This document shows, in pieces, positions 43,447-58,329 of a stretch of 64,000 bases of DNA. Origin of the DNA: a virus; IMG/VR virus record IMGVR_UViG_3300045988_057044, positions 53,907-117,906 of that record; one strand, written 5' to 3'. Below the pieces are notes generated by a model that was given only the letters and a program-made list of their open reading frames with translations, did no database searches and was not told where the DNA came from. The position numbers were made by a program, and so were the translations under genes. Position 1 is the stretch's first letter, and each line of letters opens with the position of its first letter.

Positions 43447-43532
43447 TGTTCTTGAGGGGACTCGAACCCACACGCCCATTACTGGGCATCAGAGCTTAAA
43501 TCTGACGTGTCTACCAATTCCACCATTCGGGC
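43447..43532 (-). tRNA. tRNA-Leu(TAA)-like, type II; acceptor stem does not pair (possible pseudogene/chimera)
   Basis: minus sense GCCCGAA-TG-GTG-GAATTGGTAGA-CAC, anticodon arm TCAGA-TTTAAGC-TCTGA (anticodon TAA), variable hairpin TGCCCAGTAATGGGCG, T-loop GGG-TTCGAGT-CCC, but 3' strand CAAGAAC cannot pair with 5' GCCCGAA. Confidence 0.4.
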
Positions 43533-43618
43533 ATAGTGATTAGCTATACTCACGTACCGCTAATCAACTTACTATAATAACAGTACAAGTGTTAAATTCA
43601 AAGTTAAAAACCGTTAAC

Positions 43619-43933
43619 TTATTTAAACTGCAAACAAATGTTAATAAATTTATCGACATCAGTTCCGCAATCTACATAGTTCGGAGTGTTAGCTTCGAAG
43701 TATTTGAGAACGGCCTCTGTTCCAAAAAGTCCCATCTCTTCGAAGTCATACCCCTCACCGTGAATATCCGATGTAGGCATATTTGGTCTGAATACTAACC
43801 AGGCTGTACCAGGAAATTCACAACACGTACAAACAGTCAATCCACTTTCTCTTAGTTTATCTAAGATTTGTGGACTAACTGTTTTCAATACGACACAATT
43901 ATCCGAGTTCTGCAAGTCGTTGTCTGATTTCAT
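43619..43933 (-). CDS. hypothetical protein (104 aa)
   Basis: ORF track. Confidence 0.4.
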   Translation of the reverse strand: MKSDNDLQNSDNCVVLKTVSPQILDKLRESGLTVCTCCEFPGTAWLVFRPNMPTSDIHGEGYDFEEMGLFGTEAVLKYFEANTPNYVDCGTDVDKFINICLQFK

Positions 43934-44273
43934 CTTCGGACATACTTTCCATTTTCTCGGACTGTTTCTTAGCCAGCAGTTCAGTCAGGCGTGCCTTCTC
44001 AGCTGCCTTATCTTTAGCTGCTTCTCTAGCGGCCTTGTCTTTCAGCTTATCAGTGATAACATCTTTCACAATATTGAACTTTAACTCCAGTTCGCTATTG
44101 CTAGGAGTATCATTAGTTATGAAAGATTTTCTAGGACTCTTGGCTAATTCTTCGTCATAGGACACTGCCAGTCTGTCCAATGCAGGCAGACTTAAGTCCC
44201 ACAAATCTTCCACACTCAAATTACCTTTACTAGTTGCAAAGCGCAACTTCATTTTAGACGCTTGTTTGTACAT
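43899..44273 (-). CDS. hypothetical coiled-coil protein (124 aa)
   Basis: ORF track. Confidence 0.4.
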   Translation of the reverse strand: MYKQASKMKLRFATSKGNLSVEDLWDLSLPALDRLAVSYDEELAKSPRKSFITNDTPSNSELELKFNIVKDVITDKLKDKAAREAAKDKAAEKARLTELLAKKQSEKMESMSEDEIRQRLAELG

Positions 44274-44275
44274 AA

Positions 44276-46282
44276 TTAGAATTTAATTTTAAATGGTTTA
44301 TTATCAACTTTAACTACAACCTCGTCGTGAGACGTACTAGAGAATCCCAGTCCACTCAACTGGTTATCGTTGTATTCTGCTTTAGCTCTAGAGCCAATAG
44401 CTTCGAATACTCTCTTATGATCTTTTTCGAGATCGGGTCTCAGATATTCATTGAAGAATCCTCGAACTGGGTCAGGATTTTTACATCCATCAATCATGAA
44501 GAATAGGTGCTTGTTTCCTATTTCATTACCTTCCCAATAATTTGGAGAATACATGATGCAAGAAACAGTTTGGAAACGCATAGTATCAATGCCCCACTCG
44601 TTCATAGACTTGTATGAAGTTGCACCTTCGGCAATTACCGGACTTAGGGTTATATTACCAATAGAATCTACCTTGATAATTGCTACCGCAATATATTCTC
44701 TGTCTGACACCATCTTATCATAGTTGAACTTATGAAGTTCTCCATTGATTTCGATTTCTACCTCGAATCCAAAGTCTATATGTTCTCTTTTGCAGAAGTT
44801 ATGCACTCTCACTACATATTGACCTGCTCTGAGTCTAGATTGGTCAGTCCAGATAATATTCTCGACTGCATCTCTGGTTTTACCAGAACCAGCGTTCATA
44901 TCTACATCTAGTGTACCACCAGTTAATCCTCTCTTGTGCCCGTAATAGATTTCATTACCGCCGGGTTCTGTTACATGGAGGTCAAGGTCATCATAGTTAA
45001 ACCAGTGTAGAGAACACCTTAGGAATCCATTTACGTTACCACCTGCTGCTTTCACTTTCTCCTTAAATGAATCCGCCATAGAGCCATTATACACCCAAGC
45101 GAAGTTATTCTTCCATTTGAACAGCTGACCTGCATCAGGGTTCTCTGGAGCAGTTAGGGTAACAAAATTAGGAATATGCTTATTCTCAACAAGAATTTGC
45201 ACATCCTTAGAGTGCGGCAATACATTAGTTACAAACTCCGAAATTGAGATTTCAGTAGCTTTGGTATACTCTTTAGGATTAACCGTTGAGGTCTCTTTTA
45301 AAGAGTCAAATATACCTCCTTTCATACGTGCACGAGTATCTCTATTTACGAACAGAACGTCGTTTACAGAAATATCTTCTACACGAGCATGACGGCGAGG
45401 AAGGGCATCAGTTAACCCAAGTTCTTCAACCTTCTTCTGAGCAGCCTCAATTTGTTTCTTAGTAATAAGAGCAGTAGGTCTCTTATAGTTAGATGGAGCC
45501 ATAATGTTCTCATAAGACTTAACAGCTCTTTCCAGGTCTACACCATTACTTAAGTCAATCAGTAGAGTTCCCATAGCCGTATTTCTAATTTTAGCTATTG
45601 GAGATTTGAAGTTAAACCAACAATAGTTAGTGCGAACCTCTGGTGAGAGATTATCGGCCTCAAGTATAGTTCTTCTGAACTCTTGCAGAGTCTTTAGGAA
45701 CTCCTCTCCGCGATAGAGATTATTATCCTCTATCAACTCAATTACGGTTTCTACTGCACTTAGTTTAAGCTCGGAAAGAGAGCGTTCAAAGACACCAGCT
45801 CTAGCTCTAACATCTCCGCGATAACCTGCGGCAGAATCGAAATGATGTACTCTCTTGTTGAATTTAAACTTGTTAGGAATAGTCACGTACAAGTGAGTCC
45901 AAGTTCTAGTAGTTCCATCAGGAAGAAGTTGCACATTATGGTCACAACCGTGAAACTCATTAACATCCTGAATGAATATATCTCCTATTCCGGCTTCCTT
46001 AACGAGTTTAGCCAAATCCGATGCGGTCTTTTCATAGCCAGGAGTGTGAACATCATCCCAGAAGGTTTTCACCTTGTAGGTTTGAGGGTCTATAGCGACT
46101 ACCTTACCATAGTGACGTATGAAAGACTTACAAGCATTACAATTGTGATCTTGTCGAATTGTTTCGTCCTCAAAGGAGAGAAGATAACTCATCCACAAAA
46201 GGTCTTTGTCTACATTAACTACAAATAAATTATCTGCAATCATAGCATTGAAAGCAGACTCTACATCTTTCTTGAAATCCAT
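44276..46282 (-). CDS. large hypothetical protein (668 aa)
   Basis: ORF track; long uninterrupted frame. Confidence 0.5.
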   Translation of the reverse strand: MDFKKDVESAFNAMIADNLFVVNVDKDLLWMSYLLSFEDETIRQDHNCNACKSFIRHYGKVVAIDPQTYKVKTFWDDVHTPGYEKTASDLAKLVKEAGIGDIFIQDVNEFHGCDHNVQLLPDGTTRTWTHLYVTIPNKFKFNKRVHHFDSAAGYRGDVRARAGVFERSLSELKLSAVETVIELIEDNNLYRGEEFLKTLQEFRRTILEADNLSPEVRTNYCWFNFKSPIAKIRNTAMGTLLIDLSNGVDLERAVKSYENIMAPSNYKRPTALITKKQIEAAQKKVEELGLTDALPRRHARVEDISVNDVLFVNRDTRARMKGGIFDSLKETSTVNPKEYTKATEISISEFVTNVLPHSKDVQILVENKHIPNFVTLTAPENPDAGQLFKWKNNFAWVYNGSMADSFKEKVKAAGGNVNGFLRCSLHWFNYDDLDLHVTEPGGNEIYYGHKRGLTGGTLDVDMNAGSGKTRDAVENIIWTDQSRLRAGQYVVRVHNFCKREHIDFGFEVEIEINGELHKFNYDKMVSDREYIAVAIIKVDSIGNITLSPVIAEGATSYKSMNEWGIDTMRFQTVSCIMYSPNYWEGNEIGNKHLFFMIDGCKNPDPVRGFFNEYLRPDLEKDHKRVFEAIGSRAKAEYNDNQLSGLGFSSTSHDEVVVKVDNKPFKIKF

Positions 46283-46363
46283 AATCTTTATTCGTTAAAT
46301 ATTTGATTGCATAATATAATAGTTAGACCAGTCATAACTGCGGTCTCAAAACCCATTACTTCC

Positions 46364-46630
46364 CTAGTTACTAATAGTATTGTTCCCATCAGAACTATTA
46401 CTAGTAATCTTACTAATTCCTTTTTCCACCATTTCATGCTCTAGCTTCTTCAAAGTTTCTACACTCTCCTCATTGAACTTATCCACTCCCAGTTCACTAA
46501 CCTTATATATCATAAGAATTTGGTGAAATCTTAGATAAGGATATTGGTCAATGATTTGACTCAATCTAGTTAATATCTTGAAATTAGCTTTCTTTCTAAA
46601 TCTGATAGCTTCTTCAATTTGAGCTTCCAT
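46364..46630 (-). CDS. hypothetical protein (88 aa)
   Basis: ORF track. Confidence 0.35.
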   Translation of the reverse strand: MEAQIEEAIRFRKKANFKILTRLSQIIDQYPYLRFHQILMIYKVSELGVDKFNEESVETLKKLEHEMVEKGISKITSNSSDGNNTISN

Positions 46631-47108
46631 ATTTATTAAGTATATCTAATTCCAATTCCTTAACTTTACTTTCATACAAGGAATCCTCAGCGTAGCCAAT
46701 TCTGTCTAGGAATTTGTAGTAATCCTCTTCTGGGTTATACTTACTAAGGATAAATTGCTTATAAGCGAATACACAGCTTATCCAACTATCGAACTTGAAG
46801 TAAGACATTGTTCTGGAATTATACAATCCGAACAGATTGTTATTGTCCTTACAAAGTTTCGATTTAAAATTGCCAGATTCCAGAACAGCCTGAGCTGTTA
46901 TAATTGCTGGATTTGGAAAATCGTAATGCTTCAAAGTATTGTACAATACTTCTTCGTTTACTTCATCCAATAAGTAGAATGGATGCTCTGGCAGCAATAC
47001 CATTTCCTCCTGTTTCTGATTGAAATGTATCAGATGATGCAAAGAATAACCAGTTGCAAATCCGAATACAATACCAATCATGAGGATAATTAAAACTTTC
47101 TTTTTCAT
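46614..47108 (-). CDS. membrane-anchored hypothetical protein (164 aa)
   Basis: N-terminal TM helix KKVLIILMIGIVFGFATGYSL. Confidence 0.4.
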   Translation of the reverse strand: MKKKVLIILMIGIVFGFATGYSLHHLIHFNQKQEEMVLLPEHPFYLLDEVNEEVLYNTLKHYDFPNPAIITAQAVLESGNFKSKLCKDNNNLFGLYNSRTMSYFKFDSWISCVFAYKQFILSKYNPEEDYYKFLDRIGYAEDSLYESKVKELELDILNKYGSSN

Positions 47109-47407
47109 ATCTCAATTGAATTAATAAATCTCGCATCATTAGCTAATTGATACACAGTAGTATTTAGCTCTGGTACATAGACTATATAGTAGTAATCAAA
47201 GAATTGATTATTATCCTCAAATCCTATGATTACTCCTTTTCGTCCTCCATCTACAATGCAGTCTCTATACATATATTTTGCAATATCTTGGCGGATTCCG
47301 TCATGATTTATTACAGCCTGCAATGCAGAAAGTCCGTAGTAAGATGTATTTACACCCCTTATCTCATGTCCAAGCAAATCTTTATCAAAAGGAGAACTTA
47401 CTATCAT
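47105..47407 (-). CDS. hypothetical protein (100 aa)
   Basis: ORF track. Confidence 0.35.
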   Translation of the reverse strand: MIVSSPFDKDLLGHEIRGVNTSYYGLSALQAVINHDGIRQDIAKYMYRDCIVDGGRKGVIIGFEDNNQFFDYYYIVYVPELNTTVYQLANDARFINSIEI

Positions 47408-47721
47408 AACAATACTTTAGTTAGGTCCTCTACAGTTAGATTAGCTATCTTCGATAATTCACAGATTTGGTTTGAGAAATCTAGCCTTGTTTTAAGTTCT
47501 AAATCCCTCCATTGCCGTACCTCCTCTCGACTCTTTCTAAGTTCTTCTTGTAAGTAGGATATAGCCGCCCTTGCTGACTTTAATTGCTCTGTAGAACAAA
47601 CGACAAAGTGCTTAGCTCCCTTCTTATTTGTAGAAGGAAGAGCGGCCTCTTCAATACTATCGAACTGTCCTAAGATAAAAGGAATATTATTACATTCCTT
47701 AATTAAATAGTACTTACTCAT
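47404..47721 (-). CDS. hypothetical protein (105 aa)
   Basis: ORF track. Confidence 0.35.
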   Translation of the reverse strand: MSKYYLIKECNNIPFILGQFDSIEEAALPSTNKKGAKHFVVCSTEQLKSARAAISYLQEELRKSREEVRQWRDLELKTRLDFSNQICELSKIANLTVEDLTKVLL

Positions 47722-47938
47722 CTTTAATTCCTAGATAATCCTTTAATAATTGAATGTTTCCTTCTCTCAAATGCCGAATAAAAGCCTCCCTTTCTCTCTC
47801 AAATAGCAGAATTTTACTCTCTAACAGGTCTATTCGTCTTTGTTGATTTTCCTCGTATTCTTCAATAGCGTCAGAAATTGCTTTAAGTATAGAAGATTCC
47901 TTCATAGCGCTACTCATTGTAGAACTCTTCGTCCCCAT
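47714..47938 (-). CDS. hypothetical protein (74 aa)
   Basis: ORF track. Confidence 0.35.
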   Translation of the reverse strand: MGTKSSTMSSAMKESSILKAISDAIEEYEENQQRRIDLLESKILLFEREREAFIRHLREGNIQLLKDYLGIKDE

Positions 47939-48335
47939 TATCGTCGCCTATAGGATTCTCCCATCCGTACTTTACAGCAGTAGCCTTAAACAAAGGCAAC
48001 CCATACATAGCATAATTCTCTTCAGGATAATTCTCTAAGCCCTCTTCTAGAACTTGATTCCATCTTAGTACCACGTAGAACATTAGGCTAGCTGAAATGC
48101 CTCTCTGGTCTAAAGCCTTCTCAAAACCAAACTCTACATCAGACTTAAGTTGCTCTAGGATATTCTCTCTAGTCCATTCCTTAGGCTCTGGATAAGGCTC
48201 ATCACCATCGTACTTGAAGCCTATTTTTCTAACTGCTCTTCTGTTAAAAACTTTGCTAATCTAGAACCGAAACGGTCATCGAGAACTACGGGCATAGTCT
48301 TTGTAATTGTCTAGAATCTCATTTAACGTTTTCAT
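47910..48335 (-). pseudogene. interrupted ORF: ATG(48333-48335) + 19 codons, in-frame TGA (48276-48278), 4 codons, in-frame TAG (48261-48263), then 112 protein-like codons without any canonical start (…KIGFKYDGDEPYPEPKEWTRENILEQLKSDVEFGFEKALDQRG…DDNGDEEFYNE)
   Basis: Manual rc translation; frame is shared with upstream ORF 48339..48659. Confidence 0.3.
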
Positions 48336-48338
48336 TTT

Positions 48339-48659
48339 TTACATATCTTTTAGGTAAATATTTTGAGGATATTCCCCGAATACTGATAGAGTTACAGCAC
48401 AAATCCATACCCTGTCATTGTAATTCTTACTTTTGCATAAGTAAGTTGCTCCACATTCATCCTCCTCAATTTTAGACAACGTTATCTTAGCTGCAGCTGG
48501 GTCAACCATCTGCAATCTAACAAACTTATTATCTAGAGAATCAAGAAGTTCATCTGCACCACCAACCATTGCTAGTTCCTCTGGTGTTCCGTCATAATCT
48601 GGCCACCAATAGAACCAGACTCCTCCAACCTTTACAAACTCAAATGTTTTTCTCATCAA
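48339..48659 (-). CDS. hypothetical protein (106 aa)
   Basis: ORF track. Confidence 0.4.
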   Translation of the reverse strand: MMRKTFEFVKVGGVWFYWWPDYDGTPEELAMVGGADELLDSLDNKFVRLQMVDPAAAKITLSKIEEDECGATYLCKSKNYNDRVWICAVTLSVFGEYPQNIYLKDM

Positions 48660-48675
48660 TTATTAATTATATTAA

Positions 48676-48716
48676 ACAAAAAATACCCCAACAACTTCCG
48701 CTGCTGGGGTACATAG
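48676..48716 (-). terminator. intrinsic terminator after tRNA-Glu
   Basis: minus sense CCCCAGCAGCGGAAGTTGTTGGGG then TATTTTTTGTTT. Confidence 0.55.
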
Positions 48717-48788
48717 TAACGCCAACGGGATTCGAACCCGTATGGCAGGCGTGAAAAGCCTGAATCCTAACCATTAGATGATGGCGCT
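48717..48788 (-). tRNA. tRNA-Glu(TTC)
   Basis: minus sense AGCGCCA...anticodon arm CAGGC-TTTTCAC-GCCTG, T arm ACGGG-TTCGAAT-CCCGT, acceptor pairs (one G.U); CCA not encoded. Confidence 0.8.
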
Positions 48789-48791
48789 ATC

Positions 48792-49466
48792 CTACTGCAC
48801 AATCAAGCTATAAGCTTCTTGCAACAGTTTAATAGTTGGAACCATATGGTTATCAACAACTATTATTTTATAAATGTTCAGAATTTCTTTGTAGGTTAAA
48901 GATGTACAAGTTAGAAATATCTGCGCATCTTCGTTTACAGAACCATTTGACAATCCCAAATCTACTTTAATCATACTGGGTAATGTTCCAATCTGAGAAA
49001 TGTCCCAAGTAGATTTAGTTCTCCTGAAAACTTCCCGCTGTTTGGAAGTAAGTTGCTTTTCTTTCAATCTAGACTCAATAATAGTACCATCAAACGTTAA
49101 CGAACCTCCATCGGTATTACTATTATTTAATGCTAGCTGAATCTTCTGAACTACAGAGTCTTTAGATTTTGGCTTAAGTTGCACTCCTTCCTTCAAGCCC
49201 TTAATAATCTGCAATGAAGGAATAAAGTCTTTTATTTGAGTTGCATTCCACACAAGAAATTTTCCAGGACTATCTTTAACAGTAACTATATACTTAGTCC
49301 CTCCGTTCAATGGAATAATCACTTGTAAGTCTGCATCACTCATTTTACTTAAATGGTCTGATACTCTAACTTTGACGTTTCCAATGACAAAGTAGCGAGA
49401 AACAGTTGTTTCTGCTTCGATAATCTCAGTAGCAGTTGCTACTAAATACTTTTCTAATCTAGTCAT
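48792..49466 (-). CDS. hypothetical protein (224 aa)
   Basis: ORF track. Confidence 0.45.
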   Translation of the reverse strand: MTRLEKYLVATATEIIEAETTVSRYFVIGNVKVRVSDHLSKMSDADLQVIIPLNGGTKYIVTVKDSPGKFLVWNATQIKDFIPSLQIIKGLKEGVQLKPKSKDSVVQKIQLALNNSNTDGGSLTFDGTIIESRLKEKQLTSKQREVFRRTKSTWDISQIGTLPSMIKVDLGLSNGSVNEDAQIFLTCTSLTYKEILNIYKIIVVDNHMVPTIKLLQEAYSLIVQ

Positions 49467-49493
49467 AAAAATTAATCTGATTTAATGGTTAAG

Positions 49494-49566: not shown

Positions 49567-49702
49567 ATATAGTGGAGATTTCCACTATTTACTAATTCTA
49601 ACCTCTGCGGGAATATACTCATTAGTAAAAGTTTCTAGGTTTTACTTCGGGAACCATTAACCTTGTGCTTACTGTCGGGGACCTTATCCATCCAGAAGCC
49701 TT

Positions 49703-49740
49703 GCCGAGACTGGGGGATTCGAACCCCAACCTTCACAGTG
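49703..49740 (-). pseudogene. tRNA 3'-half remnant (T arm TGGGG-TTCGAAT-CCCCA + acceptor strand AGTCTCGG) abutting tRNA-Asp
   Basis: plus GCCGAGAC-TGGGGGATTCGAACCCCA-ACCTTCACAGT-GCCGAGAG: direct repeat GCCGAGA flanks a T-arm-like hairpin; no 5' half present. Confidence 0.35.
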
Positions 49741-49812
49741 CCGAGAGTACCAGACTCGAACTGGTGACCTTCGCATAGACAGTGCGCTATTCTACCACTG
49801 AACTAACCCTCG
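49741..49812 (-). tRNA. tRNA-Asp(GTC)
   Basis: minus sense CGAGGGT-TA-GTTC-AGTGGTA-GAAT-A-GCGCA-CTGTCTA-TGCGA-AGGTC-ACCAG-TTCGAGT-CTGGT-ACTCTCG-G. Confidence 0.7.
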
Positions 49813-49823
49813 GTGTAACTGGA

Positions 49824-50279
49824 TTACTCCAGACTAATTAAACCCTTCTCTAACATAATATGGTGATTCGGACATAACCATACTAAATTATTCTCATTGT
49901 TAATCTCTTTAATAAGAGTGTCTTCGTCAAATTCTAATATTCCTTTAAGATGATGTACTTCAAGTATTGCATCAAATTCATGATTATGACAATATTGGCA
50001 TACTTTCTCACGTTCGGAACTTTCTAATACTCTACGAGCATTAGTCCTTATTTCTTGACATTTAGATGATAAGTACTTCTGCCCAGATGTATAATAACCT
50101 AATGTTTTGTTACCAATTCCATTAAGTTCTTCCCAGCAACTACGACACATTTCTGAATCTTTATGCTTAGGTTTACCACATCTAGGACATATCTTGTTTT
50201 CATCGTGCTTTATCCTACCTCTATTATTGTAAGAAGCTAATAATGAACTCCATAGGGATATGATAACTATCTGTAACAA
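49824..50279 (-). CDS. HNH endonuclease
   Basis: CPRCGK...CRSCW...CQYCHNHEFDAILEVHHL...NLVWLCPNHH (Zn-finger + HNH His-Me motif). Confidence 0.65.
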   Translation of the reverse strand: MLQIVIISLWSSLLASYNNRGRIKHDENKICPRCGKPKHKDSEMCRSCWEELNGIGNKTLGYYTSGQKYLSSKCQEIRTNARRVLESSEREKVCQYCHNHEFDAILEVHHLKGILEFDEDTLIKEINNENNLVWLCPNHHIMLEKGLISLE

Positions 50280-50897: not shown

Positions 50898-50956
50898 TAG
50901 CGGGACTCGACCTTCAGGTTATGAGCCTGACTAGCTACCTCTGCTAACACCCCGCG
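50898..50956 (-). tRNA. tRNA-Met(CAT)-like with deleted T arm (initiator-like 5' end CGCGGGGTG)
   Basis: minus sense CGCGGGG-TG-TTAGC-AGAGGTA-GCTA-G-TCAGG-CTCATAA-CCTGA-AGGTCGAG-TCCCGCT-A; acceptor, D and anticodon arms canonical, only ~3 nt where the 17-nt T arm should be. Confidence 0.4.
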
Positions 50957-51157: not shown

Positions 51158-51230
51158 TGGACACGCAGGGACTCGAACCCTATCTTCCGGTGTGCAAAAC
51201 CAGCGCTCTAGCCATTTGAGCTAACGGCCC
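51158..51230 (-). tRNA. tRNA-Ala(TGC), acceptor stem weak in inner 3 pairs
   Basis: minus sense GGGCCGT-TA-GCTC-AAATGGCTA-GAGC-G-CTGGT-TTTGCAC-ACCGG-AAGA-TAGGG-TTCGAGT-CCCTG-CGTGTCC-A; G3.U70 present; pairs 5-7 mismatched. Confidence 0.5.
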
Positions 51231-51932: not shown

Positions 51933-52017
51933 CGTATGGTGCAGGATTCGAACCTGCGATGGGATTTCTCACGGCGGGTTAACAGCCCGCTGCCGTCGGC
52001 CACTTGGCTAACCATAC
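51933..52017 (-). tRNA. type II (long variable arm, 85 nt) tRNA with anticodon GTT (nominally Asn)
   Basis: minus sense GTATGGT-TA-GCC-AAGTGGCCGAC-GGC-A-GCGGG-CTGTTAA-CCCGC-CGTGAGAAATCCCATC-GCAGG-TTCGAAT-CCTGC-ACCATAC-G; Tyr/Ser-like body, Asn-like anticodon loop. Confidence 0.55.
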
Positions 52018-52259: not shown

Positions 52260-52339
52260 TTGCGGAGGTAGGATTCGAACCGTTTATGACGATTTCTAGG
52301 TTATGAGCCTAGCGAGATGACCAACTTCTCTACTCCACG
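52260..52339 (-). tRNA. tRNA-Met(CAT), initiator-like (C1.A72 mismatch), with enlarged/irregular T region
   Basis: minus sense CGTGGAG-TA-GAGA-AGTTGGTCA-TCTC-G-CTAGG-CTCATAA-CCTAG-AAATCGTCATAAACGG-TTCGAAT-CCTAC-CTCCGCA-A; T stem does not form canonically. Confidence 0.45.
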
Positions 52340-52475: not shown

Positions 52476-52550
52476 ACTCGGTGGTCAGATTCGAACTGAC
52501 GAATCAGCAGATTTGCAGTCTGAGCCATTAAACCACTCTGGTACACCGAG
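52476..52550 (-). tRNA. tRNA-Cys(GCA)
   Basis: minus sense CTCGGTG...TCAGA-CTGCAAA-TCTGC...GTCAG-TTCGAAT-CTGAC-CACCGAG-T. Confidence 0.7.
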
Positions 52551-52560
52551 GTGACTACTT

Positions 52561-52620
52561 CTCCACCCCGTAAGACTAGTTATTCGGAGATAAGACCAGT
52601 TACAACTTGTAACTGTGGAG
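52561..52620 (-). other. ~60-nt hairpin-rich element (possible tRNA remnant or small RNA)
   Basis: CTCCAC...GTGGAG terminal pairing; perfect 7-bp hairpin CAGTTACA-ACTT-TGTAACTG; no T-loop consensus. Confidence 0.25.
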
Positions 52621-52633
52621 CCTTGTTTCGTCG

Positions 52634-52708
52634 TTCCGATTAAAGGATTTGAACCTCCCACTAATGCTTTATTGGTATGGGCGCTCTACCATACTGAGCT
52701 AAATCGGA
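52634..52708 (-). tRNA. tRNA, anticodon undetermined (canonical acceptor, D and T arms; aberrant 23-nt anticodon region)
   Basis: minus sense TCCGATT-TA-GCTC-AGTATGGTA-GAGC-G-[CCCATACCAATAAAGCATTAGTG]-GGAGG-TTCAAAT-CCTTT-AATCGGA-A; no 5-7-5 anticodon arm can be drawn. Confidence 0.45.
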
Positions 52709-52712
52709 AAAG

Positions 52713-52784
52713 AGTGGATAATGAGAATCGAACTCACATCCTCGGCATGGCAAGCCGATGCACTAACCATTGTGCTATACCCAC
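52713..52784 (-). tRNA. tRNA-Gly(GCC)
   Basis: minus sense GTGGGTA-TA-GCAC-AATGGTTA-GTGC-A-TCGGC-TTGCCAT-GCCGA-GGAT-GTGAG-TTCGATT-CTCAT-TATCCAC-T. Confidence 0.8.
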
Positions 52785-52789
52785 AAATG

Positions 52790-52859
52790 TGCAGGTAGAG
52801 AGACTCTCCCCTCCAGATTGGAAGTCTGGCGTGCTCAATCCATTAACACCACACCTGCA
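52790..52859 (-). tRNA. tRNA-Gly(TCC)-like with T loop reduced to 1 nt
   Basis: minus sense GCAGGTG-TG-GTGT-TAATGGATTGA-GCAC-G-CCAGA-CTTCCAA-TCTGG-AGGG-GAGAG-T-CTCTC-TACCTGC-A; T stem retained, 7-nt T loop missing. Confidence 0.45.
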
Positions 52860-52893
52860 TAATGGAGAGTTTTACGATACTCTCCTAAACGAA

Positions 52894-53238
52894 TTACTCA
52901 GATAACAGCTCCTGCATATCAATCTCGCCAGCTACCTTAGTAATAGCGATTTTGAACGGATTCCCCTTGATTTTGTCAAACAAGTGAGCATCACGAGTTT
53001 CTTTCACCTCGTCAGGGACGTTAAATTTCTTCTTGCCTTTCTCTATGGTTTTCCATGTAACCACCTCGCAGCGAGTTATCTCGTAAACGCTGTCGTTTCG
53101 GTCAACGTAAACCTTGAAAAAGTTCTTTTTGTAGTTGAACTTCTCAACCCTTTTGAAATTCTTGGGATGAGCGTGGAACTTCAAGTCGCATTTTCCATTA
53201 GCTAAGAAAATCAATTCTGCCATAATAATACTCCGCAT
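52894..53238 (-). CDS. hypothetical protein (114 aa)
   Basis: ORF track. Confidence 0.4.
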   Translation of the reverse strand: MRSIIMAELIFLANGKCDLKFHAHPKNFKRVEKFNYKKNFFKVYVDRNDSVYEITRCEVVTWKTIEKGKKKFNVPDEVKETRDAHLFDKIKGNPFKIAITKVAGEIDMQELLSE

Positions 53239-53359
53239 AGTCGGAGATTCAAAGTTAAACTATGTTAATTCCAGTCTTTCGTCTGGCACTCCACCTCGTT
53301 TTAACCAATAGCTACTATTATTCACTATTTGAGCTAAGCTCTAAACTGGGATAAAGGTA

Positions 53360-53635
53360 TTAGTCTATGTAAATAAACGGTTTTCCAAATTCTTCCATGA
53401 AGGACTCAAACCATCCCTCCATTTCTTCGTCACTATCAAAATAGATAGATTCATCATGTCTTTTAGAGAACTCTAAAATGATATGAGGTTTCTGATATAC
53501 TATTCCATCCTTGTAGAAGGCATATCTCTTCTCTAAAGATGAAATCATTTTTTCTTCCGTATAAGTTCCAAAACATGGGTTCCAATAATCTCGATGTATT
53601 TTCCAAAACAAGAATCGTCCACATAATGTACCCAA
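53360..53635 (-). CDS. hypothetical protein (91 aa)
   Basis: ORF track. Confidence 0.35.
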   Translation of the reverse strand: MGTLCGRFLFWKIHRDYWNPCFGTYTEEKMISSLEKRYAFYKDGIVYQKPHIILEFSKRHDESIYFDSDEEMEGWFESFMEEFGKPFIYID

Positions 53636-53675
53636 TCGGGATGCTTTCTAGTTTTAAAAACTAAAACTCTCTTTA

Positions 53676-53978
53676 CTAAACTTCCATTAATATACTTGTC
53701 CATACTTTAATCCCAATATTCTGGGCAGTCATTAATAATCCCTTTTCGCAAAAGCCTTTATCATAGAAAATGCAGGATGAACACGAAAGATTGTCCCTAG
53801 ATTCATATTCTTGAATACCTTCTTGAATATCTCTTTTTGCTTTATATCTATCCTTTCTATTCTCTTTCTTGTATTCATATTGCATCATTCTGCTTCTATA
53901 AGGAGAAGTGCAATTCTTAAGCATCTTTGCGTATTTAGAACTATCAAGGAAGTCCGTAATTGACTCACAGACCTTCAA
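53676..53978 (-). CDS. hypothetical protein (100 aa)
   Basis: ORF track. Confidence 0.35.
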   Translation of the reverse strand: MKVCESITDFLDSSKYAKMLKNCTSPYRSRMMQYEYKKENRKDRYKAKRDIQEGIQEYESRDNLSCSSCIFYDKGFCEKGLLMTAQNIGIKVWTSILMEV

Positions 53979-54121
53979 CGCCTTATTATAGGAACATTAT
54001 ACCTTACATTGGCTTTAATCCCGGCAACAGGTACGTAAAATTTACCGCAAGCGTTGTAAACCTTTTTAGCTCTCGAAATCCACTTTCTTTTAGAAAGTTC
54101 TCTTCTTAATTCTCTATCCAT
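53975..54121 (-). CDS. small basic protein (48 aa; MDRELRRELSKRKWISRAKK...)
   Basis: ORF-track frame 53975..54268 truncated to internal ATG (54119-54121) because its 5' part overlaps tRNA-Cys. Confidence 0.3.
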   Translation of the reverse strand: MDRELRRELSKRKWISRAKKVYNACGKFYVPVAGIKANVRYNVPIIRR

Positions 54122-54141
54122 AAGCAATAAGATTAGTGTAG

Positions 54142-54215
54142 AATCTAGAGTGGGATTCGAACCCACGAAACACGGTTTTGCAGACCGTTCCCTTAGACCG
54201 CTCGGGCATCTAGAC
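54142..54215 (-). tRNA. tRNA-Cys(GCA) (second copy, different body)
   Basis: minus sense GTCTAGA-TG-CCC-GAGCGGTCTAA-GGG-A-ACGGT-CTGCAAA-ACCGT-GTTTC-GTGGG-TTCGAAT-CCCAC-TCTAGAT-T. Confidence 0.7.
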
Positions 54216-54242
54216 ATAAAGGGGAGACTAGCTCCCCAAGTT

Positions 54243-55655
54243 TTATAGTACCAAAGAGTTGTAAGCACCTCTACGATACAGAGACGGTCTACTATTTGGA
54301 TCTTTAATCCAGTAGTAATTGATTTCCTTGCTGTCTTTAGTAACTACGATTCCTAGTTTCTTGTCAATCGCAATAATTTCGTCATCATAGAAGTCATCTC
54401 CAACTGCCAGATTTGCGAACTTAATATCCGAAGATACATAGTAATATGACAGATTGTGGAAATTGTGGCGGCGATATTCATAATACTCGTTAAGAGCTTT
54501 TCTTTCCTCAACAGTACAGTTATCCTCATCGTCTACAATAGGCTTCGGCATCGGATTGTTGAATCTCTCAACAGCTTTAGAGAACTCTTCAATAGAGAAT
54601 TTATTCTTATCAGCAGAAATCTCACCAGCATATGCATAACCTCTAATGCAGGAATAGTCATACTCATTAGTTACTACGTTGAAGAAGCCTTTAGCTCTTC
54701 TCAATCCTTCTATACCGTGAATATTGACCTCATTAACTATAGTTTTGAGAATATCAATAGTAGATATAGTCAAAGAATCAATGAAATCAAGCAAATCTTG
54801 ACGAGCTTCCGGCACTTGAAGTGCGTCGTCCAGATATTCGTTCACAACCTTCAAATCCAAGTTGCCAAATTCCTTGACATAACGGATTCTAGACGGACGT
54901 CCTACCATATTCTCATTGATGGTCATAGCATTAGTAGTAAGCAGGAAAACCTTGCGATACTTAGAGTTGTAAACACCGTCCATGATTTGCAAGATAGTAG
55001 AATCCGATTCACTGAAATTCTTTTCAAATTCATCCAAGAACAGAATGCAATCTCCTTCAATACCAGAAAGGAACTCAATCATAGATTGATTATGGTCTCC
55101 CATATCCTTTACGATAATGATGGGCAGATTTAGCTTGTTAGCCAGTTCCTTAGCAGTAACAGTCTTTCCAGTGCCCTTTGTACCAGTAAGCATAATTCCG
55201 AGATTGCCTTCTGTAGCGTGATACGTCTTAATTACATGGTCAATAAACTCGTTCTGCAAACCATACATTTTGTACGGGAATACAAACTTATCCGCATATC
55301 TGTCTAGGTGATAACCTGTCATTGTCAGACAAATACTGTAGATTCCAACTGGGAGAGACTGCTCAACGCTATAGCCTGAGCTTACCTGGGTATATGTAGA
55401 CCCAGAACACATCCAAACTTTGTTCATTTTTTCTTTTTCTAAGTTACTTAAAACAGATGCCTGTTTGAGACATCCTACTAATTGATTAGCTATAGAATCT
55501 ATAGCTTCTTTGTTATCAGTTTCCTCTGAGAGTCTTTTTACAAACCACTCTTTAGAACGGGCAACTATTTGCTCATCAGTCTCATTTTCAGAGATTGTTT
55601 CAGCAAATTCATGGTAGATACTAGTCAGCTTACCTTCTAATTCTTCTACGGTCAT
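54243..55655 (-). CDS. AAA+ ATPase
   Basis: Walker A IMLTGTKGTGKTVTAKEL, Walker B CILFLDEFEK. Confidence 0.65.
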   Translation of the reverse strand: MTVEELEGKLTSIYHEFAETISENETDEQIVARSKEWFVKRLSEETDNKEAIDSIANQLVGCLKQASVLSNLEKEKMNKVWMCSGSTYTQVSSGYSVEQSLPVGIYSICLTMTGYHLDRYADKFVFPYKMYGLQNEFIDHVIKTYHATEGNLGIMLTGTKGTGKTVTAKELANKLNLPIIIVKDMGDHNQSMIEFLSGIEGDCILFLDEFEKNFSESDSTILQIMDGVYNSKYRKVFLLTTNAMTINENMVGRPSRIRYVKEFGNLDLKVVNEYLDDALQVPEARQDLLDFIDSLTISTIDILKTIVNEVNIHGIEGLRRAKGFFNVVTNEYDYSCIRGYAYAGEISADKNKFSIEEFSKAVERFNNPMPKPIVDDEDNCTVEERKALNEYYEYRRHNFHNLSYYYVSSDIKFANLAVGDDFYDDEIIAIDKKLGIVVTKDSKEINYYWIKDPNSRPSLYRRGAYNSLVL

Positions 55656-55810
55656 TAGTAATCCTCCTCGTTATGTTCATTAGTTATGAGAGAACGAGCC
55701 TTTTCCATACCAGATTCGTAAGACTCTGTAACAAACACTATGGCAGTTTTTAGGTCCATGGAATTGCCATTGTCTACCATTTCCTGAATAATTTCACTTA
55801 ACTCTTTCAT
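55655..55810 (-). CDS. small hypothetical protein (~51 aa) translationally coupled (TAATG) to the AAA+ gene
   Basis: Manual rc translation MKELSEIIQEMVDNGNSMDLKTAIVFVTESYESGMEKARSLITNEHNEEDY; stop overlaps downstream ATG. Confidence 0.3.
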   Translation of the reverse strand: MKELSEIIQEMVDNGNSMDLKTAIVFVTESYESGMEKARSLITNEHNEEDY

Positions 55811-55832
55811 ATTACTTAATAAATAAAAGTTG

Positions 55833-55907
55833 TAGGGTAGGAGGGACTCGAACCCTCACGGCACATGGGCCTAAACCATGCCTGTCTACCAATTCCAGCA
55901 CTACCCC
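55833..55907 (-). tRNA. tRNA with anticodon TAG (Leu, reads CUA) on a class-I-length (75 nt) body
   Basis: minus sense GGGGTAG-TG-CTG-GAATTGGTAGA-CAG-G-CATGG-TTTAGGC-CCATG-TGCCGT-GAGGG-TTCGAGT-CCCTC-CTACCCT-A; lacks the long variable arm of bacterial tRNA-Leu. Confidence 0.6.
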
Positions 55908-55916
55908 TTGCTCTAG

Positions 55917-56348
55917 TTAATTGTTATTATAATTGTGAAGTTGCATATGACAGTTAGAGCAAACTATCATTAGATTATCCAACTTATTATTATAATGGTT
56001 ATTATCCTTGTGATGTAATTCTAAAGGAATTTTCATTCCCTCTGATAATCCACAACGCTCACACTTATCTTCTTTATATCCATCCTCTATTAATCTTATC
56101 CTCTTTCTAGAATTAGAAACATTAGGATTTTCTATCAGGTCTAAAGCATCTTTCCTCTTTGGGTCTAGTCTTTTTCCCTTAGAACCTTGATTCCCCTTAT
56201 ACTCTATTCCCATCTTAATATAATAGGATTTTAAAGTATCAACCTTGCAATTTAGTCTTCTAGCTATTTCAGCATTAGACTCATTTTCTGAAATCCATTG
56301 TCGGATTTCCTATTCTCTTTCTAAAATGTCGATTCTTGCCTTTGCCAT
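55917..56348 (-). CDS. HNH endonuclease with N-terminal HTH domain, interrupted by an in-frame TAG (56310-56312) 12 codons after the ATG
   Basis: ORF-track ORF 55917..56213 (CERCG...HHKDNNHYNNKLDNLMIVCSNCH = HNH). Its frame continues upstream through EIRQWISENESNAEIARRLNCKVDTLKSYYIK (sigma-region-4/LuxR-type HTH) with no start codon until MAKARIDILERE-TAG. Confidence 0.5.
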
Positions 56349-56383
56349 ATTAAATACTATAAATTCCGCCACTACCCCAACTG

Positions 56384-56845
56384 TTAGGTTGCTTTTATTT
56401 CTTTAGCAACCTTAACCATTTCGTTATATTTCTCTACTACCTTATTAAAGTCTTCCTCAGATATTTGAAAAACTTTGTGAGAGTTTCCATACCACTCTTC
56501 TTGACCAGGAAGCCACGTTATATTAATATACCTCTTCTTTTCTAATTCCATATGTACCTTAGATGAATCAATATAAACTGAATAGGCATCCTCTTCGATT
56601 CTACTACTTCGTGGATCTGTTGGGTCGGATGTAAGTCTGAAAAACATTGTTGACATACCATTGAAGTCTATCTTGAAACACTTTCCTATATAGCTTTTAA
56701 GTAGTGCTTTATGTCTATTATCGCTATCTACCTTCTCTTGGTGTCTCTTCCGTTCTTCTTCCTTAACATATTCATTATACTCTCTTAGAGTGCTGTCTGG
56801 ATGCTTGTCCAGATATTCTTCTATAGGACTCTTTCTTCCCCACAT
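56384..56845 (-). CDS. hypothetical protein (153 aa)
   Basis: ORF track. Confidence 0.4.
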   Translation of the reverse strand: MWGRKSPIEEYLDKHPDSTLREYNEYVKEEERKRHQEKVDSDNRHKALLKSYIGKCFKIDFNGMSTMFFRLTSDPTDPRSSRIEEDAYSVYIDSSKVHMELEKKRYINITWLPGQEEWYGNSHKVFQISEEDFNKVVEKYNEMVKVAKEIKAT

Positions 56846-56846
56846 A

Positions 56847-57257
56847 TTATACTACTTTAAGATGGCAATAAATACTAAATTCTGGAATTGGAATCCAAGT
56901 TGCAATACCATTGCTATCTACTGGTTTACCCTTGTTGATTGTACAAATAGTGATATGAGGTTTAGCATTTGCACAAGGCAGATATTGGTCTCCCAATTCT
57001 ACTCCAAAAGCTATTGCTTTCTCAGAAATCCCTATTTTGTTTACAATTAATCGAAAATTACCATCTATACGATATTGTAGGTCATTAGCCATCTTTTCTT
57101 CATGTTGATTTTTATGGAGAAGAGTGCAATGATCTAAATAAATAGTACTTCCTCTTTGGAACACCAGATTGCAAATAATGGGATTTCCAATGATAACTTG
57201 CATAAGTTTGTTTCTAGTTGGTTCATCTAAGAACAATCCAAAATACTGATAATTCAT
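56847..57257 (-). CDS. hypothetical protein (136 aa)
   Basis: ORF track. Confidence 0.4.
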   Translation of the reverse strand: MNYQYFGLFLDEPTRNKLMQVIIGNPIICNLVFQRGSTIYLDHCTLLHKNQHEEKMANDLQYRIDGNFRLIVNKIGISEKAIAFGVELGDQYLPCANAKPHITICTINKGKPVDSNGIATWIPIPEFSIYCHLKVV

Positions 57258-57395
57258 AAGTTTTATTTTTTAATTATTTGAAATCAGACCTCATATCCGT
57301 TCCATGGAGCGCAATATAAGCCGACTATACTCGTGGCAACCTATATTACTTGATATGTCTTTTCGGTTGTACTACTTTCTCCGTATCTGATTATG

Positions 57396-57464
57396 TGAAC
57401 CTATTGGGACTTGAACCCAAATCTAGCCAACGCGTCTAGACCTTTATTCCAATTAGGTAGGCTC
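57396..57464 (-). tRNA. tRNA-like sequence, undetermined (good acceptor and T arm, 4 nt short, no canonical D/anticodon arms)
   Basis: minus sense GAGCCTA...GGTCTAGACGCGTTGGCTAGA...TTGGG-TTCAAGT-CCCAA-TAGGTTC-A; interior is palindrome-rich (GTCTAGAC, ACGCGT). Confidence 0.3.
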
Positions 57465-57479
57465 AAGTGTGGACCTAGA

Positions 57480-57554
57480 GGGCTTTGAACCCCCGACCTT
57501 CTGATTATGAGTCAGCTGCTCTGACCGGACTGAGCTATAGGTCCTAAATATTAT
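57480..57554 (-). tRNA. tRNA-Met or tRNA-Ile2(CAT)
   Basis: minus sense GGACCTA-TA-GCTC-AGTCCGGTCA-GAGC-A-GCTGA-CTCATAA-TCAGA-AGGTC-GGGGG-TTCAAAG-CCCTC-TAGGTCC-A. Confidence 0.75.
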
Positions 57555-57904
57555 TCGTATGCACTTATTGATTTGCATTCAAATATTACTGTCTTCCCTA
57601 GAACATCACTTGGTTTTATATTAAACTTAGCAAATTCCAGCATCAACTTTTCCATTTCTTCTACAGAATGTGTTTCTCCTATGATACTTTTTCTATCTAT
57701 AGAAGTTTGAAAATTGGCAAACAATTCTGTAACTAAACAACTATTACTCTCATTTCTTACTATTATTTGTTCTTCTGGTTTTAACTTTTCTGCTGCATCA
57801 GAGTGTAACTTACCACACCAACAAACTCCGAATGAATTTTCCCGGACTTTACATTTACCTTTGTCACAAAACTTGACAACCTTTCTATAATCTTCTGGCT
57901 TCAT
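57551..57904 (-). CDS. hypothetical protein (117 aa)
   Basis: ORF track. Confidence 0.4.
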   Translation of the reverse strand: MKPEDYRKVVKFCDKGKCKVRENSFGVCWCGKLHSDAAEKLKPEEQIIVRNESNSCLVTELFANFQTSIDRKSIIGETHSVEEMEKLMLEFAKFNIKPSDVLGKTVIFECKSISAYE

Positions 57905-58329
57905 AATTTAGAACGTATATCGTTAATTAACGCTTGAATCATATGAGTTTGTTCTCTCCATTTGTAATGAAATTCAAGACTGTTAGACTCTTCTTCGGTT
58001 AATGGAATATGAAATAATATTTTATGGTATATATTCTTAAACCATTTCCTCTCAAGCTTCCTACTTTCCTTAGTTCCTACCTCATATCCTCTCTTAGATT
58101 TACGGTTCTTAGAACGACCACGTGCCCAACCAAATTGTTTGCCATCATTCACCCATTTCCAGTCGGCTCTGGCTTCTTTTTGCCTAAGCCTCTTGTTAAT
58201 GATATTAATCTTTTCTATCTCTTCCATATTTGTTAATTTTGTTGGGCTACTAGGACTCGAACCTAGACTGACAGAATCAAAATCTGTAGTGCTAACCATT
58301 ACACCCAATACTAACTTAACTATTCTCAC
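57901..58329 (-). CDS. hypothetical basic protein (142 aa)
   Basis: ORF track. Confidence 0.4.
   Translation of the reverse strand: MRIVKLVLGVMVSTTDFDSVSLGSSPSSPTKLTNMEEIEKINIINKRLRQKEARADWKWVNDGKQFGWARGRSKNRKSKRGYEVGTKESRKLERKWFKNIYHKILFHIPLTEEESNSLEFHYKWREQTHMIQALINDIRSKL
58242..58313 (-). tRNA. tRNA-Gln(TTG)-like; acceptor strands do not pair (possible chimera/pseudogene)
   Basis: minus sense TAGTATT-GG-GTGT-AATGGTTA-GCAC-T-ACAGA-TTTTGAT-TCTGT-CAGT-CTAGG-TTCGAGT-CCTAG-TAGCCCA-A. Confidence 0.45.

Follow-up and report, generated by a model that had tools for sequence, protein, structure and literature searches.

Broken, split and inherited non-canonical tRNA genes in the tRNA island of a human-gut phage

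Background

The transfer RNA (tRNA) region of phage T5 contains the HNH endonucleases F-TflI/II/IV, and homing endonucleases are a known component of phage tRNA clusters. A second example is SegB of phages T4 and T6, a free-standing homing endonuclease encoded in a phage tRNA cluster (PMC2330249, PMC13096335). In this work, we analyze the tRNA genes in a 64,000-nucleotide stretch of viral DNA (hereafter, the window; positions 53,907 to 117,906 of IMG/VR record IMGVR_UViG_3300045988_057044), which belongs to the tRNA island of a large phage from the human gut. A first-pass annotation of the window, made from the letters alone, had named six structural oddities among its tRNA genes: acceptor strands that do not pair in tRNA-Leu(TAA) and tRNA-Gln(TTG), a naked 3' tRNA half beside tRNA-Asp, a gene at 52634-52708 without a drawable anticodon arm, a gene at 57396-57464 with a palindromic interior, and an initiator-like tRNA-Met at 52260-52339 with an expanded T region. 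It had ascribed them to recurrent recombination between tRNA genes, with trans-splicing or permuted tRNAs as the alternative. Reading of the sequence shows that all six are present, on the minus strand. We consider it probable that their causes are mixed: erosion of tRNA genes specific to individual genomes, turnover of HNH endonuclease genes, and inherited non-canonical genes.

The array resembles the SegB system in that endonuclease genes lie between tRNAs, show presence/absence polymorphism and are inherited along with the flanking tRNAs. SegB, however, belongs to the GIY-YIG family, whereas the endonucleases here are of the HNH type. Moreover, unlike SegB, the tRNA-Asp insert described below lies inside a tRNA gene, leaves both halves of that gene in place and includes a whole replacement tRNA; it is known here from sequence.

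Interruptions of tRNA genes are also familiar from introns and from split genes. In cyanobacteria and plastids, the anticodon loop of tRNA-Leu(UAA) is interrupted by a group I intron. In Patescibacteria, group I introns have been described in tRNA-Asp and tRNA-Asn at position 35/36 (PMC13011429). The tRNA-Asp insert is similar to these bacterial introns in its location in the anticodon loop, within 2 nucleotides (nt) of positions 35-38, and in the endonuclease open reading frame (ORF) inside it, but it contains no detectable ribozyme and almost no non-coding sequence beyond its tRNA. Split and permuted tRNA genes occur in Nanoarchaeum, Caldivirga and red algae, where both halves exist and are accompanied by a splicing endonuclease and by either complementary leaders or bulge-helix-bulge motifs. 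The window likewise contains a lone tRNA half with a break beside the anticodon; unlike those systems, no second half, leaders, motifs or splicing endonuclease were found in the window.

Fragments of tRNA genes in prokaryotes are reportedly, for the most part, duplications at mobile-element integration sites, whereas the lesions in the window are mostly in-place deletions plus one endonuclease insertion. Phage T5 tRNAs vary in their anticodon loops and thereby escape anticodon nucleases; part of the variation seen here is likewise concentrated in the anticodon arm. That tRNA pseudogenes and gene fragments occur in prokaryotic genomes is well documented (PMC9897764). As in that case, damaged genes of the window are either missed or reported as tRNAs: ARAGORN calls the broken Leu-TAA gene, and Rfam calls the broken Gln and His genes. 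Natural tRNAs with non-canonical structures have also been reviewed (PMC7609411). Some genes of the window resemble these in being conserved and in combining tRNA-like acceptor and T arms with an abnormal T stem, D region or anticodon arm, but they differ in having 9-19-nt loops that lack the U33-NNN-purine pattern and would not decode in the usual way.

Detection of tRNA genes and related loci

The tRNA genes of the window are located on the minus strand between ~43.4 and 63.4 kb. ARAGORN reports 14 of them and the Rfam tRNA model 17, and the two lists disagree exactly at the members flagged by the first-pass annotation. The genes reported only by Rfam are at 58242-58307, 52634-52708, 51158-51230 and 63310-63376, and the one reported only by ARAGORN is Leu-TAA (43448-43533). 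We regarded a tRNA as canonical when it reached the gathering threshold of Rfam RF00005 (29 bits) and all four arms were aligned. The score was reached despite a missing or mismatched arm by Gln (40.5 bits), 52634-52708 (40.3), Met 52260-52339 (38.5), the Ala-like gene (39.5) and His (43.3), and Rfam reports none of the Gly-TCC, Trp and fMet-2 remnants. With regard to individual arms, a 7-bp acceptor stem is present in 52634-52708, 57396-57464 and Met 52260-52339 and absent from Leu-TAA, Gln and the Ala-like gene, while a 5-bp anticodon stem closing a 7-nt loop with U33, an anticodon and purine 37 is found in Leu-TAA, Gln and Met; 52634-52708 and 57396-57464 lack a 5-bp stem with a 7-nt loop.

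To collect relatives, we anchored the search on the AAA ATPase gene that lies mid-array (54243-55655), which gave 35 related loci from IMG/VR. Pattern scans added extra loci, so that the comparison set comprises ~45 related contigs in all, from human-gut phages; they are up to ~190 kb long, with one of 270 kb, and are denoted below by L numbers. Three GenBank fragments from human faeces match the window at 87-99% identity. The window itself is a mosaic, separate segments of which are 96-99% identical to different relatives. Comparison with orthologous arrays had been recommended in the first-pass annotation as a way to locate recombination breakpoints; in this comparison, the six oddities prove to differ in cause. 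The features discussed below are listed in Table 1.

Table 1. Positions of tRNA genes, tRNA remnants and associated genes in the window
Feature	Position	Strand	Evidence or remark
Remnant ORF, final 60 amino acids of a 303-amino-acid ORF	43248-43430	-	L005 ORF 20316-21227, …NKLSNT followed by QEQEYREKMAEFKAKYDKY…
tRNA-Leu(TAA), 3'-truncated	43457-43532	-	Matches intact orthologues up to T loop (…GGGTTCGAGTCCC)
tRNA-Asp allele B, 3' part only (from position 38 on)	49702-49740	-	Identical to 3' half of intact 74-nt tRNA-Asp(GTC)
tRNA-Asp(GTC) allele A, anticodon loop CTGTCTA, inside insert	49741-49812	-	ARAGORN; Rfam 56.6 bits
HNH endonuclease gene, N-terminally truncated	49824-50279	-	Residues 44-183 of the 183-amino-acid protein of L010; Pfam HNH_2 E 1e-4, PHROG HNH families
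fMet-2 (second initiator-like tRNA-Met) minus 14 nt of T arm	50898-50956	-	Window only
Ala-TGC-like tRNA, G3·U70, three acceptor non-pairs	51158-51230	-	Rfam 39.5 bits; missed by first-pass annotation
Initiator-like tRNA-Met, 6-nt insert (CATAAA/ATAAAC) in 5' strand of T stem	52260-52339	-	Rfam 38.5 bits
tRNA-like gene, oversized hypervariable anticodon loop, 7 nt missing here	52634-52708	-	Rfam 40.3 bits; alignments
tRNA-Gly(TCC) minus 6 nt of T arm, repeat GAGT	52790-52858	-	Same deletion in L013; called by neither finder
tRNA-Leu(TAG) minus 7 nt of variable arm	55833-55907	-	Same deletion in L013; 52.9 bits vs 60.5 intact
Small HNH endonuclease gene, 98 amino acids, directly upstream of tRNA-Leu(TAG)	55917-56213	-	Pfam HNH E 9e-5
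tRNA-like gene: 7-bp acceptor, T arm, weak D region, 5-bp/9-nt middle hairpin	57396-57464	-	
tRNA-Gln(TTG) minus 6 nt (part of 5' acceptor strand + U8)	58242-58308	-	Alignment to 34 relatives
HNH endonuclease gene, 138 amino acids	61584-62000	-	phrog_2255 E 3e-38
tRNA-Trp(CCA) minus 13 nt (T loop + 3' T stem), repeat TCCTAG	62003-62063	-	Window only
tRNA-His(GTG) minus 6 nt of T loop	63309-63377	-	Window only; 43.3 bits vs 65.4 intact

Genes broken by deletion

The largest group of defects would be explained by erosion, in which deletions of 6-14 nt and one of 904 bp broke tRNAs that are normal in relatives. This explanation would cover Leu-TAA, Gln-TTG, His, Trp, fMet-2, Gly-TCC and Leu-TAG, together with the loss of 7 nt from 52634-52708.

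In Leu-TAA, the 5' acceptor strand GCCCGAA stands opposite CAAGAAC and no stem is formed, as the first-pass annotation had stated; its description of the remaining arms as textbook does not hold, in that the T stem is damaged too. Rfam aligns only model positions 8-63 of this gene (26.0 bits). In L003, L005, L009 and L034, as well as in the 3' end of the L006 gene, the sequence after GGGTTCGAGTCCC reads on as …CCCACTTCGGGTA. The segment ACTTCGGGTA that follows GGGTTCGAGTCCC in those relatives gives a normal T stem and an acceptor strand complementary to GCCCGAA, and the intact gene scores 56.9 bits with the same model. The junction in the window lies between 43457 and 43456: past 43457, the window is identical to a sequence located 904 bp further downstream in L005 and L009, within a 303-amino-acid ORF (junction coordinates 20114/21019 in L005 and 18984/19889 in L009). 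The deletion thus removed the last 10-11 nt of the tRNA, a 56-amino-acid ORF and 234 codons of the 303-amino-acid ORF; what remains of the latter is the 60-amino-acid ORF at 43248-43430. Judged from these alignments, Leu-TAA is a pseudogene truncated by a single 904-bp deletion and not a chimera of two tRNAs, because the sequence past the breakpoint is the interior of an ORF and not a tRNA. A donor tRNA ending in …CCCCTCAAGAACA had been considered for the 3' end, but this sequence, too, turned out to be ORF interior. No independent copy of the junction was found in IMG/VR.

A different event has affected the same gene in L031. There, tRNA-Leu(TAA) (19866-20770) has an 816-nt insert in its anticodon, comprising a group I intron-like element and a 176-amino-acid HNH ORF. 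The Rfam match of this insert (41.8 bits, E 5.5e-9) is below the gathering score of 50. The window copy is without the intron.

For Gln-TTG, the acceptor is unpaired in the 72-nt frame used by the first-pass annotation. Rfam finds a shifted register of 66 nt (58242-58307, 40.5 bits) with a 5-6-bp acceptor and no 8-9 linker, so that automated folding does offer another pairing, yet not a normal cloverleaf, and the claim of a defective acceptor stands. In 34 of 34 relatives, the corresponding sequence, TGGGCTATGGTGTAATGG…, is a textbook 72-nt tRNA-Gln, while the window reads …ATTG------GGTGTAATGG with both flanks collinear with the relatives. Two alleles exist among the relatives, scoring 65-66 bits against 40.5 in the window; since the changes between them in the anticodon stem and the T stem are compensatory, the gene must be a working one there. 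The 6-nt junction is absent from every other locus and from IMG/VR.

In order to see how widespread such lesions are, we compared every tRNA group over 36 genomes and then inspected the alignments. This survey identified five lesioned genes that the first-pass annotation had missed, namely His, Trp, fMet-2, Gly-TCC and Leu-TAG; intact Gly-TCC, for example, scores 55.1 bits in relatives and is undetected in the window. The automated count gives eight lesions in the window, to which manual alignment adds Leu-TAG as a ninth, as against 0-6 in the other 35 genomes, and the window is therefore the most damaged of the 36. Private deletions of the same type, 6-10 nt long, are found in L017, L032, L014 and L013. 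Most of the short deletions (6-14 nt) lie between direct repeats of 2-6 nt, mostly in or beside the T-arm hairpin. Outside the tRNA genes, indels private to the window are rare across the 21.5 kb compared. Just one other deletion is of this size, a 6-nt loss at ~47650, which is within ORF coordinates and preserves the frame.

An intact orthologue combined with a lesion that takes away part of an essential helix was found for Leu-TAA, Gln, His, Trp, fMet-2, Gly-TCC and Asp allele B, and also for the 7-nt loss in 52634-52708. Whereas these lesions and their intact counterparts are seen directly, it is loss of function that we infer from them: the broken genes of the window appear to be pseudogenes or, for the lesions confined to the window, possibly assembly errors. 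Three lesions recur in independent contigs, that in 52634-52708 (L017, L058 and L068) and those in Gly-TCC and Leu-TAG (L013), and these three are therefore heritable.

Two specific causes of the T-loop deletions were considered and discarded. Avoidance of restriction sites (TCGA, GANTC, TTCGAA) does not fit on inspection, since the Gly-TCC and fMet-2 deletions leave such sites in place and 52634-52708, Gln and Leu-TAG never had any. An effect of the adjacent HNH gene on Trp does not fit either, since L073 and L074 have the same HNH gene beside an intact Trp.

A tRNA-Asp gene split by an HNH insert

The naked 3' half beside tRNA-Asp, reported by the first-pass annotation, does consist of a T arm and a 3' acceptor strand. 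The direct repeat GCCGAGA that flanks it is also present, but it is simply the 3' acceptor strand common to two tRNA-Asp alleles, here called A and B. Intact allele B, with the canonical anticodon loop CTGTCAC, is found in seven loci (L005, L007, L008, L012, L015, L020 and L029), all of which are without the HNH gene and without allele A. In 18 other loci, allele B is split in the anticodon loop after …CACACTGTCA by a 659-bp insert. The insert sits at position 37/38, with a 2-nt ambiguity (the dinucleotide CA). In order, it comprises 22 nt of non-coding sequence, a 183-amino-acid HNH ORF, a further 11 nt of non-coding sequence and complete allele A, after which the rest of allele B follows. 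The order of B 5' half, HNH gene, allele A and B 3' half is kept with a near-constant spacing (614 nt in most of the 18 loci), and in the occupied loci both halves of allele B match the intact allele exactly. The homology between the window and the insert begins only at 50237; HNH residues 1-43 and the entire 5' half of allele B are gone. The naked half is thus the 3' part of allele B, a gene split by the insert of HNH gene and allele A.

The site is therefore polymorphic for the presence of the insert at the same nucleotide, with seven empty loci against 18 occupied ones, and each of the two clades contains a mixture of occupied and empty sites. In addition, the HNH gene of the insert is 96-99% identical where the ATPase is merely 82-87% identical to that of the window. 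From this patchy distribution we infer the pattern of a mobile homing element. In such a process, the HNH endonuclease would cut the resident allele B, and the insert would then be copied in, with the two tRNA halves and their flanks serving as homology arms; allele A would itself remain uncut and would take over the function lost with allele B. In the window, a later rearrangement would have eliminated the N-terminus of the HNH protein along with the 5' half of allele B, leaving the 3' half naked.

The insert has little in common with an intron. No match to Intron_gpI was found in L010 (16100-17200) at E<=1, and no ribozyme of any other kind was found. In the L010 insert (16366-17024), the ORF takes up 16388-16939 and the remainder is a tRNA, which leaves too little non-coding sequence to accommodate a ribozyme. 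Since the insert has no ribozyme and cannot splice, allele B is taken to be dead where it is occupied. We did not find a description of an HNH insert inside a tRNA gene with both halves kept and a replacement tRNA supplied. Such an insert, which interrupts one tRNA gene and provides another in its stead, is a modestly new detail.

Free-standing 3' halves are not confined to tRNA-Asp. The elongator tRNA-Met is intact in the window (57469-57544), and in L005, L011, L018, L033, L035 and L070 its 5' half is replaced up to the anticodon loop; the gene in those relatives is a second case of a free-standing 3' tRNA half.

Inherited non-canonical genes

A third group consists of genes that are abnormal in the relatives as well: the initiator-like Met, 57396-57464, the intact form of 52634-52708 and an Ala-like gene. 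They would be inherited non-canonical genes rather than products of recent damage. These genes keep their oddities family-wide, under constraint at least as strong as that of normal tRNAs. Because the oddities are kept under constraint across the family, the genes are probably functional RNAs, though probably not all ordinary decoders.

In the initiator-like Met, the expanded T region noted in the first-pass annotation was borne out: it contains three T-stem non-pairs and can be described as a 12-nt variable region or, equivalently, as a 6-nt insert. The T stem reads GTC-ATAAAC-GG/CCTAC, which relative to fMet-2 amounts to a 6-nt insert plus one mismatch. The initiator hallmarks, a C1·A72 mismatch and an A11-U24 pair, are present. 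The expansion is not the product of recombination proposed earlier, as it is present in all 34 relatives, over which only 3 of 80 columns of the gene vary, compared with 56 of 80 in the flanks. In its conservation the gene equals any of the canonical neighbors. On this comparison, the insert has been inherited under constraint and does not reflect recent decay.

The Ala-like gene is identical in 33 loci. Only 1 of its 73 columns varies, compared with 34 of 80 in the flanks and 3-18 variable columns in canonical neighbor tRNAs. Mismatches at ~5:68 and 6:67 occur both in the window allele and in a divergent allele (L065-L067), and the third, at 7:66, in the window allele only. The divergent allele has compensatory changes in the anticodon stem and the same odd acceptor, which looks to be under selection.

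The gene at 57396-57464 is missed by both ARAGORN and Rfam at default settings and scores 22.2 bits when searched alone. As the first-pass annotation had it, the acceptor and T arm are kept and the interior is palindromic, but for that interior a stem of 5 bp closing a loop of 9 nt can be drawn, and its presence in many relatives marks it as an inherited feature instead of a recombination product. In 19 loci the sequence is the same throughout. A second allele, found in L065-L067, has the same first 24 nt except for one change and the same last 26 nt except for one substitution in L067, whereas its middle is a wholly different 20-nt segment in place of the 19-nt segment of the window. Both middle segments form a perfect 5-bp stem (TCTAG/CTAGA and CTGCT/AGCAG) with a loop of 9 or 10 nt; since both of the exchanged segments pair, a hairpin seems to be required while its sequence is not. 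Three scans of the collection yielded just these two alleles. As for a parent tRNA, a low-stringency BLAST search against 38 loci gave only chance matches of 10-19 nt.

The acceptor, D and T arms of 52634-52708 are good, as stated in the first-pass annotation (Rfam leaves 19 nt unaligned for the anticodon arm), but the missing anticodon arm is an artefact of a rebuilt T stem. In the window, a 7-nt deletion (GGTCAGA, flanking repeat GAGGT), shared with L017, L058 and L068, extends across the variable loop and the 5' T stem. Both the earlier reader and Rfam used the 3' strand of the anticodon stem to rebuild a T stem, and it is because this strand was taken for the T stem that the anticodon arm could not be drawn. 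Intact homologues span 79-84 nt over the matched region in seven sequence variants and score 52.9 bits, against 40.3 in the window. They have perfect acceptor, D and T arms and an anticodon stem of CCCAT/GTGGG, CCCAC/GTGGG or TCCGC/GCGGG. The anticodon loop is 15 nt long in the window and 13-19 nt in relatives, varying in both sequence and length. Across eight variants, 165 of 165 stem cells pair. The aberrant anticodon arm is thus inherited in many relatives, with one additional 7-nt deletion, and was not generated by recombination as had been proposed. ARAGORN assigns inconsistent isotypes to the intact homologues (Tyr-ATA in L020, Ser-ACT in L031), which we disregarded as force-fits. A search of the window for an antisense target of the long loop matched nothing but the loop itself.

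Alternative explanations

The earlier proposal that Leu-TAA and Gln-TTG are chimeras, assembled from halves of different tRNAs by recombination in the array, has the advantage that such events do occur in this phage family. Crossovers have fused iMet with Thr in L009, fMet-2 with Thr in L004, L006 and L038, Trp with Ser-GCT in L035 and Gln with Leu-TAG in L006, in each case exactly at the shared T-loop sequence GGTTCGA(A/G)TCC and with deletion of the intervening genes; the Leu-TAA breakpoint also lies in the T loop. (L031 may contain a further fusion, of Ala to an unidentified 3' end for which Met-like is a guess.) However, none of the six elements of the window is a product of crossover between tRNAs. 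The 3' sequence of Leu-TAA comes from the middle of an ORF 904 bp downstream, and with the gene intact in relatives the window copy is a deletion derivative; Gln is collinear with its orthologues on both sides and just 6 nt short. The chimera proposal is thus very improbable. Even less credence can be given to split, permuted or intron-containing tRNAs whose parts are joined in RNA. Although the group I intron-like insert with its HNH ORF in tRNA-Leu(TAA) of L031, the split of allele B at the classic 37/38 position and a 2H phosphoesterase gene within the array (see below) would agree with unconventional processing, the 64-kb window contains no partner halves: neither the 5' half of Asp allele B nor the 3' end of Leu-TAA nor the 5' end of Gln was found with up to 2-3 mismatches. 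Moreover, the Asp insert has neither a ribozyme signal nor room for one, Rfam finds no intron in the window, and the lesions are lineage-specific losses from intact genes. It is also unlikely, if not to the same degree, that the short deletions seen only in the window (Gln, His, Trp and fMet-2) are artefacts of amplification, sequencing or assembly at hairpins. They are singletons; the assemblies of L017, L032, L014 and L013 contain private clusters of 6-8-nt deletions while many others contain none; and deletions flanked by repeats and associated with hairpins also typify polymerase slippage in vitro. Against this, three similar deletions recur in independent contigs with different allelic backgrounds, the scarcity of window-private indels elsewhere in the 21.5 kb and the preserved frame of the one at ~47650 (6 nt) are not the pattern of an error-prone assembly, and the junction of the 904-bp deletion is coherent.

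For the inherited genes, we consider it rather doubtful, though the idea deserves some weight, that 52260-52339, 57396-57464, 51158-51230 and intact 52634-52708 are pseudogenes as well, preserved by the youth of the family or by hitch-hiking. The identity of 57396-57464 in 19 loci extends to its flanks, and high similarity across the family is common to every tRNA of the array; yet flanks are in general far more variable than genes, stem changes keep pairing while loops vary, and the divergent Ala-like allele compensates its anticodon stem with the odd acceptor unchanged. A more far-reaching proposal combines two parts: the inherited genes would be functional non-decoding mimics that might, for instance, serve to sequester defence nucleases of the host that cleave tRNAs, or other factors that bind tRNAs, as a decoy or sponge would, and an arms race would drive the rapid evolution of the anticodon arm; and the HNH gene with tRNA-Asp would be a self-compensating homing element, destroying the tRNA gene in which it settles and providing in exchange a replacement that resists cutting. 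Taken jointly, we regard this as a long shot. Returning to the mixture of erosion, HNH turnover and inherited non-canonical genes, several observations weigh against it. The lesions in Gln, His, Trp, fMet-2 and Leu-TAA are seen in the window alone, so that artefacts are possible, and the 14-nt deletion in fMet-2 has no flanking repeat if it was one event. Homing of the HNH/Asp insert is argued from its distribution, and the retention of both tRNA halves is unlike the outcome of ordinary co-conversion by a free-standing endonuclease. Covariation in 52634-52708 is weak, with one compensatory pair and a score equaled by 55 of 500 shuffles, and the conservation of the initiator-like Met and the Ala-like gene speaks for constraint, not for a role.

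HNH genes of the array

The first-pass annotation had connected recombination in the array with interspersed HNH genes. Three such genes lie among the tRNAs (Table 1), and the array is a hot spot for recombination and mobile elements. One of the three accounts for the naked Asp half, but none of the six listed oddities is a recombinant between tRNAs. Compared with L005, the small HNH gene upstream of tRNA-Leu(TAG) has an in-frame 6-nt deletion by which WM is lost. The HNH gene beside Trp is contained in a 432-bp stretch (61579-62010) that is found in none of the 35 anchored relatives and is present in L073 and L074. Its homologues, with 43-48% identity, occur in unrelated viral contigs with dense tRNA arrays (L075-L078), where they start ~10-200 nt after a tRNA gene, three of the four within ~30 nt. 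To judge from these positions, this HNH lineage may be specialized for tRNA islands.

Implications

The observation is real and mostly ordinary, in that it comes down to erosion of dispensable tRNA genes and turnover of homing endonucleases; the conserved tRNA look-alikes with abnormal arms are, again, modestly new. For annotation, 9 of the ~23 tRNA-like genes of the array are broken and the two finders disagree on them; tRNA counts of metagenomic phages can therefore be inflated or deflated. The family also provides a natural series of tRNA island turnover, including microdeletions in the T arm, T-loop crossovers, a group I intron-like insert and an HNH insert. Since the broken genes are spread between genomes, many of the tRNAs should be dispensable, at least in some hosts. 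The conserved look-alikes would be candidates for non-translational roles.

Other features of the array

The tRNA-Asn(GTT) of the window (51933-52017, minus strand) is 85 nt long and scores 56 bits, with a 15-nt variable region and a class-II-like D loop. In other relatives its place is taken by an unrelated canonical 73-nt tRNA-Asn, and the long form in L005 has lost the T loop and the 3' end. Two relatives have a transfer-messenger RNA (tmRNA) inside the tRNA array, L020 at 16954-17517 and L019 at 12402-12917 (63.6 bits with Rfam; a tag peptide is reported by ARAGORN), whereas no tmRNA is present in the window.

An ORF of 136 amino acids at 56847-57257 (minus strand) encodes a putative 2H phosphoesterase, matching the Pfam fungal tRNA-ligase phosphodiesterase domain (E 2e-7) and containing two HxT motifs, HCTL and HITI. 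By this similarity, it could act in RNA repair or in the degradation of cyclic-nucleotide signals. We also considered it as the marker of a tRNA repair system and dropped this idea, as searches of PDB sequences were empty and no ligase or kinase was detected nearby.

Finally, the motif TCGTGAGWAWAG occurs in six copies in the window, compared with 1.2 expected. Three copies are at 43429-43440, 43544-43555 and 58320-58331 (minus strand), and the other three are on the plus strand. Two copies are located immediately upstream of tRNA-Leu(TAA) and tRNA-Gln, and the motif could be a promoter or a processing signal.

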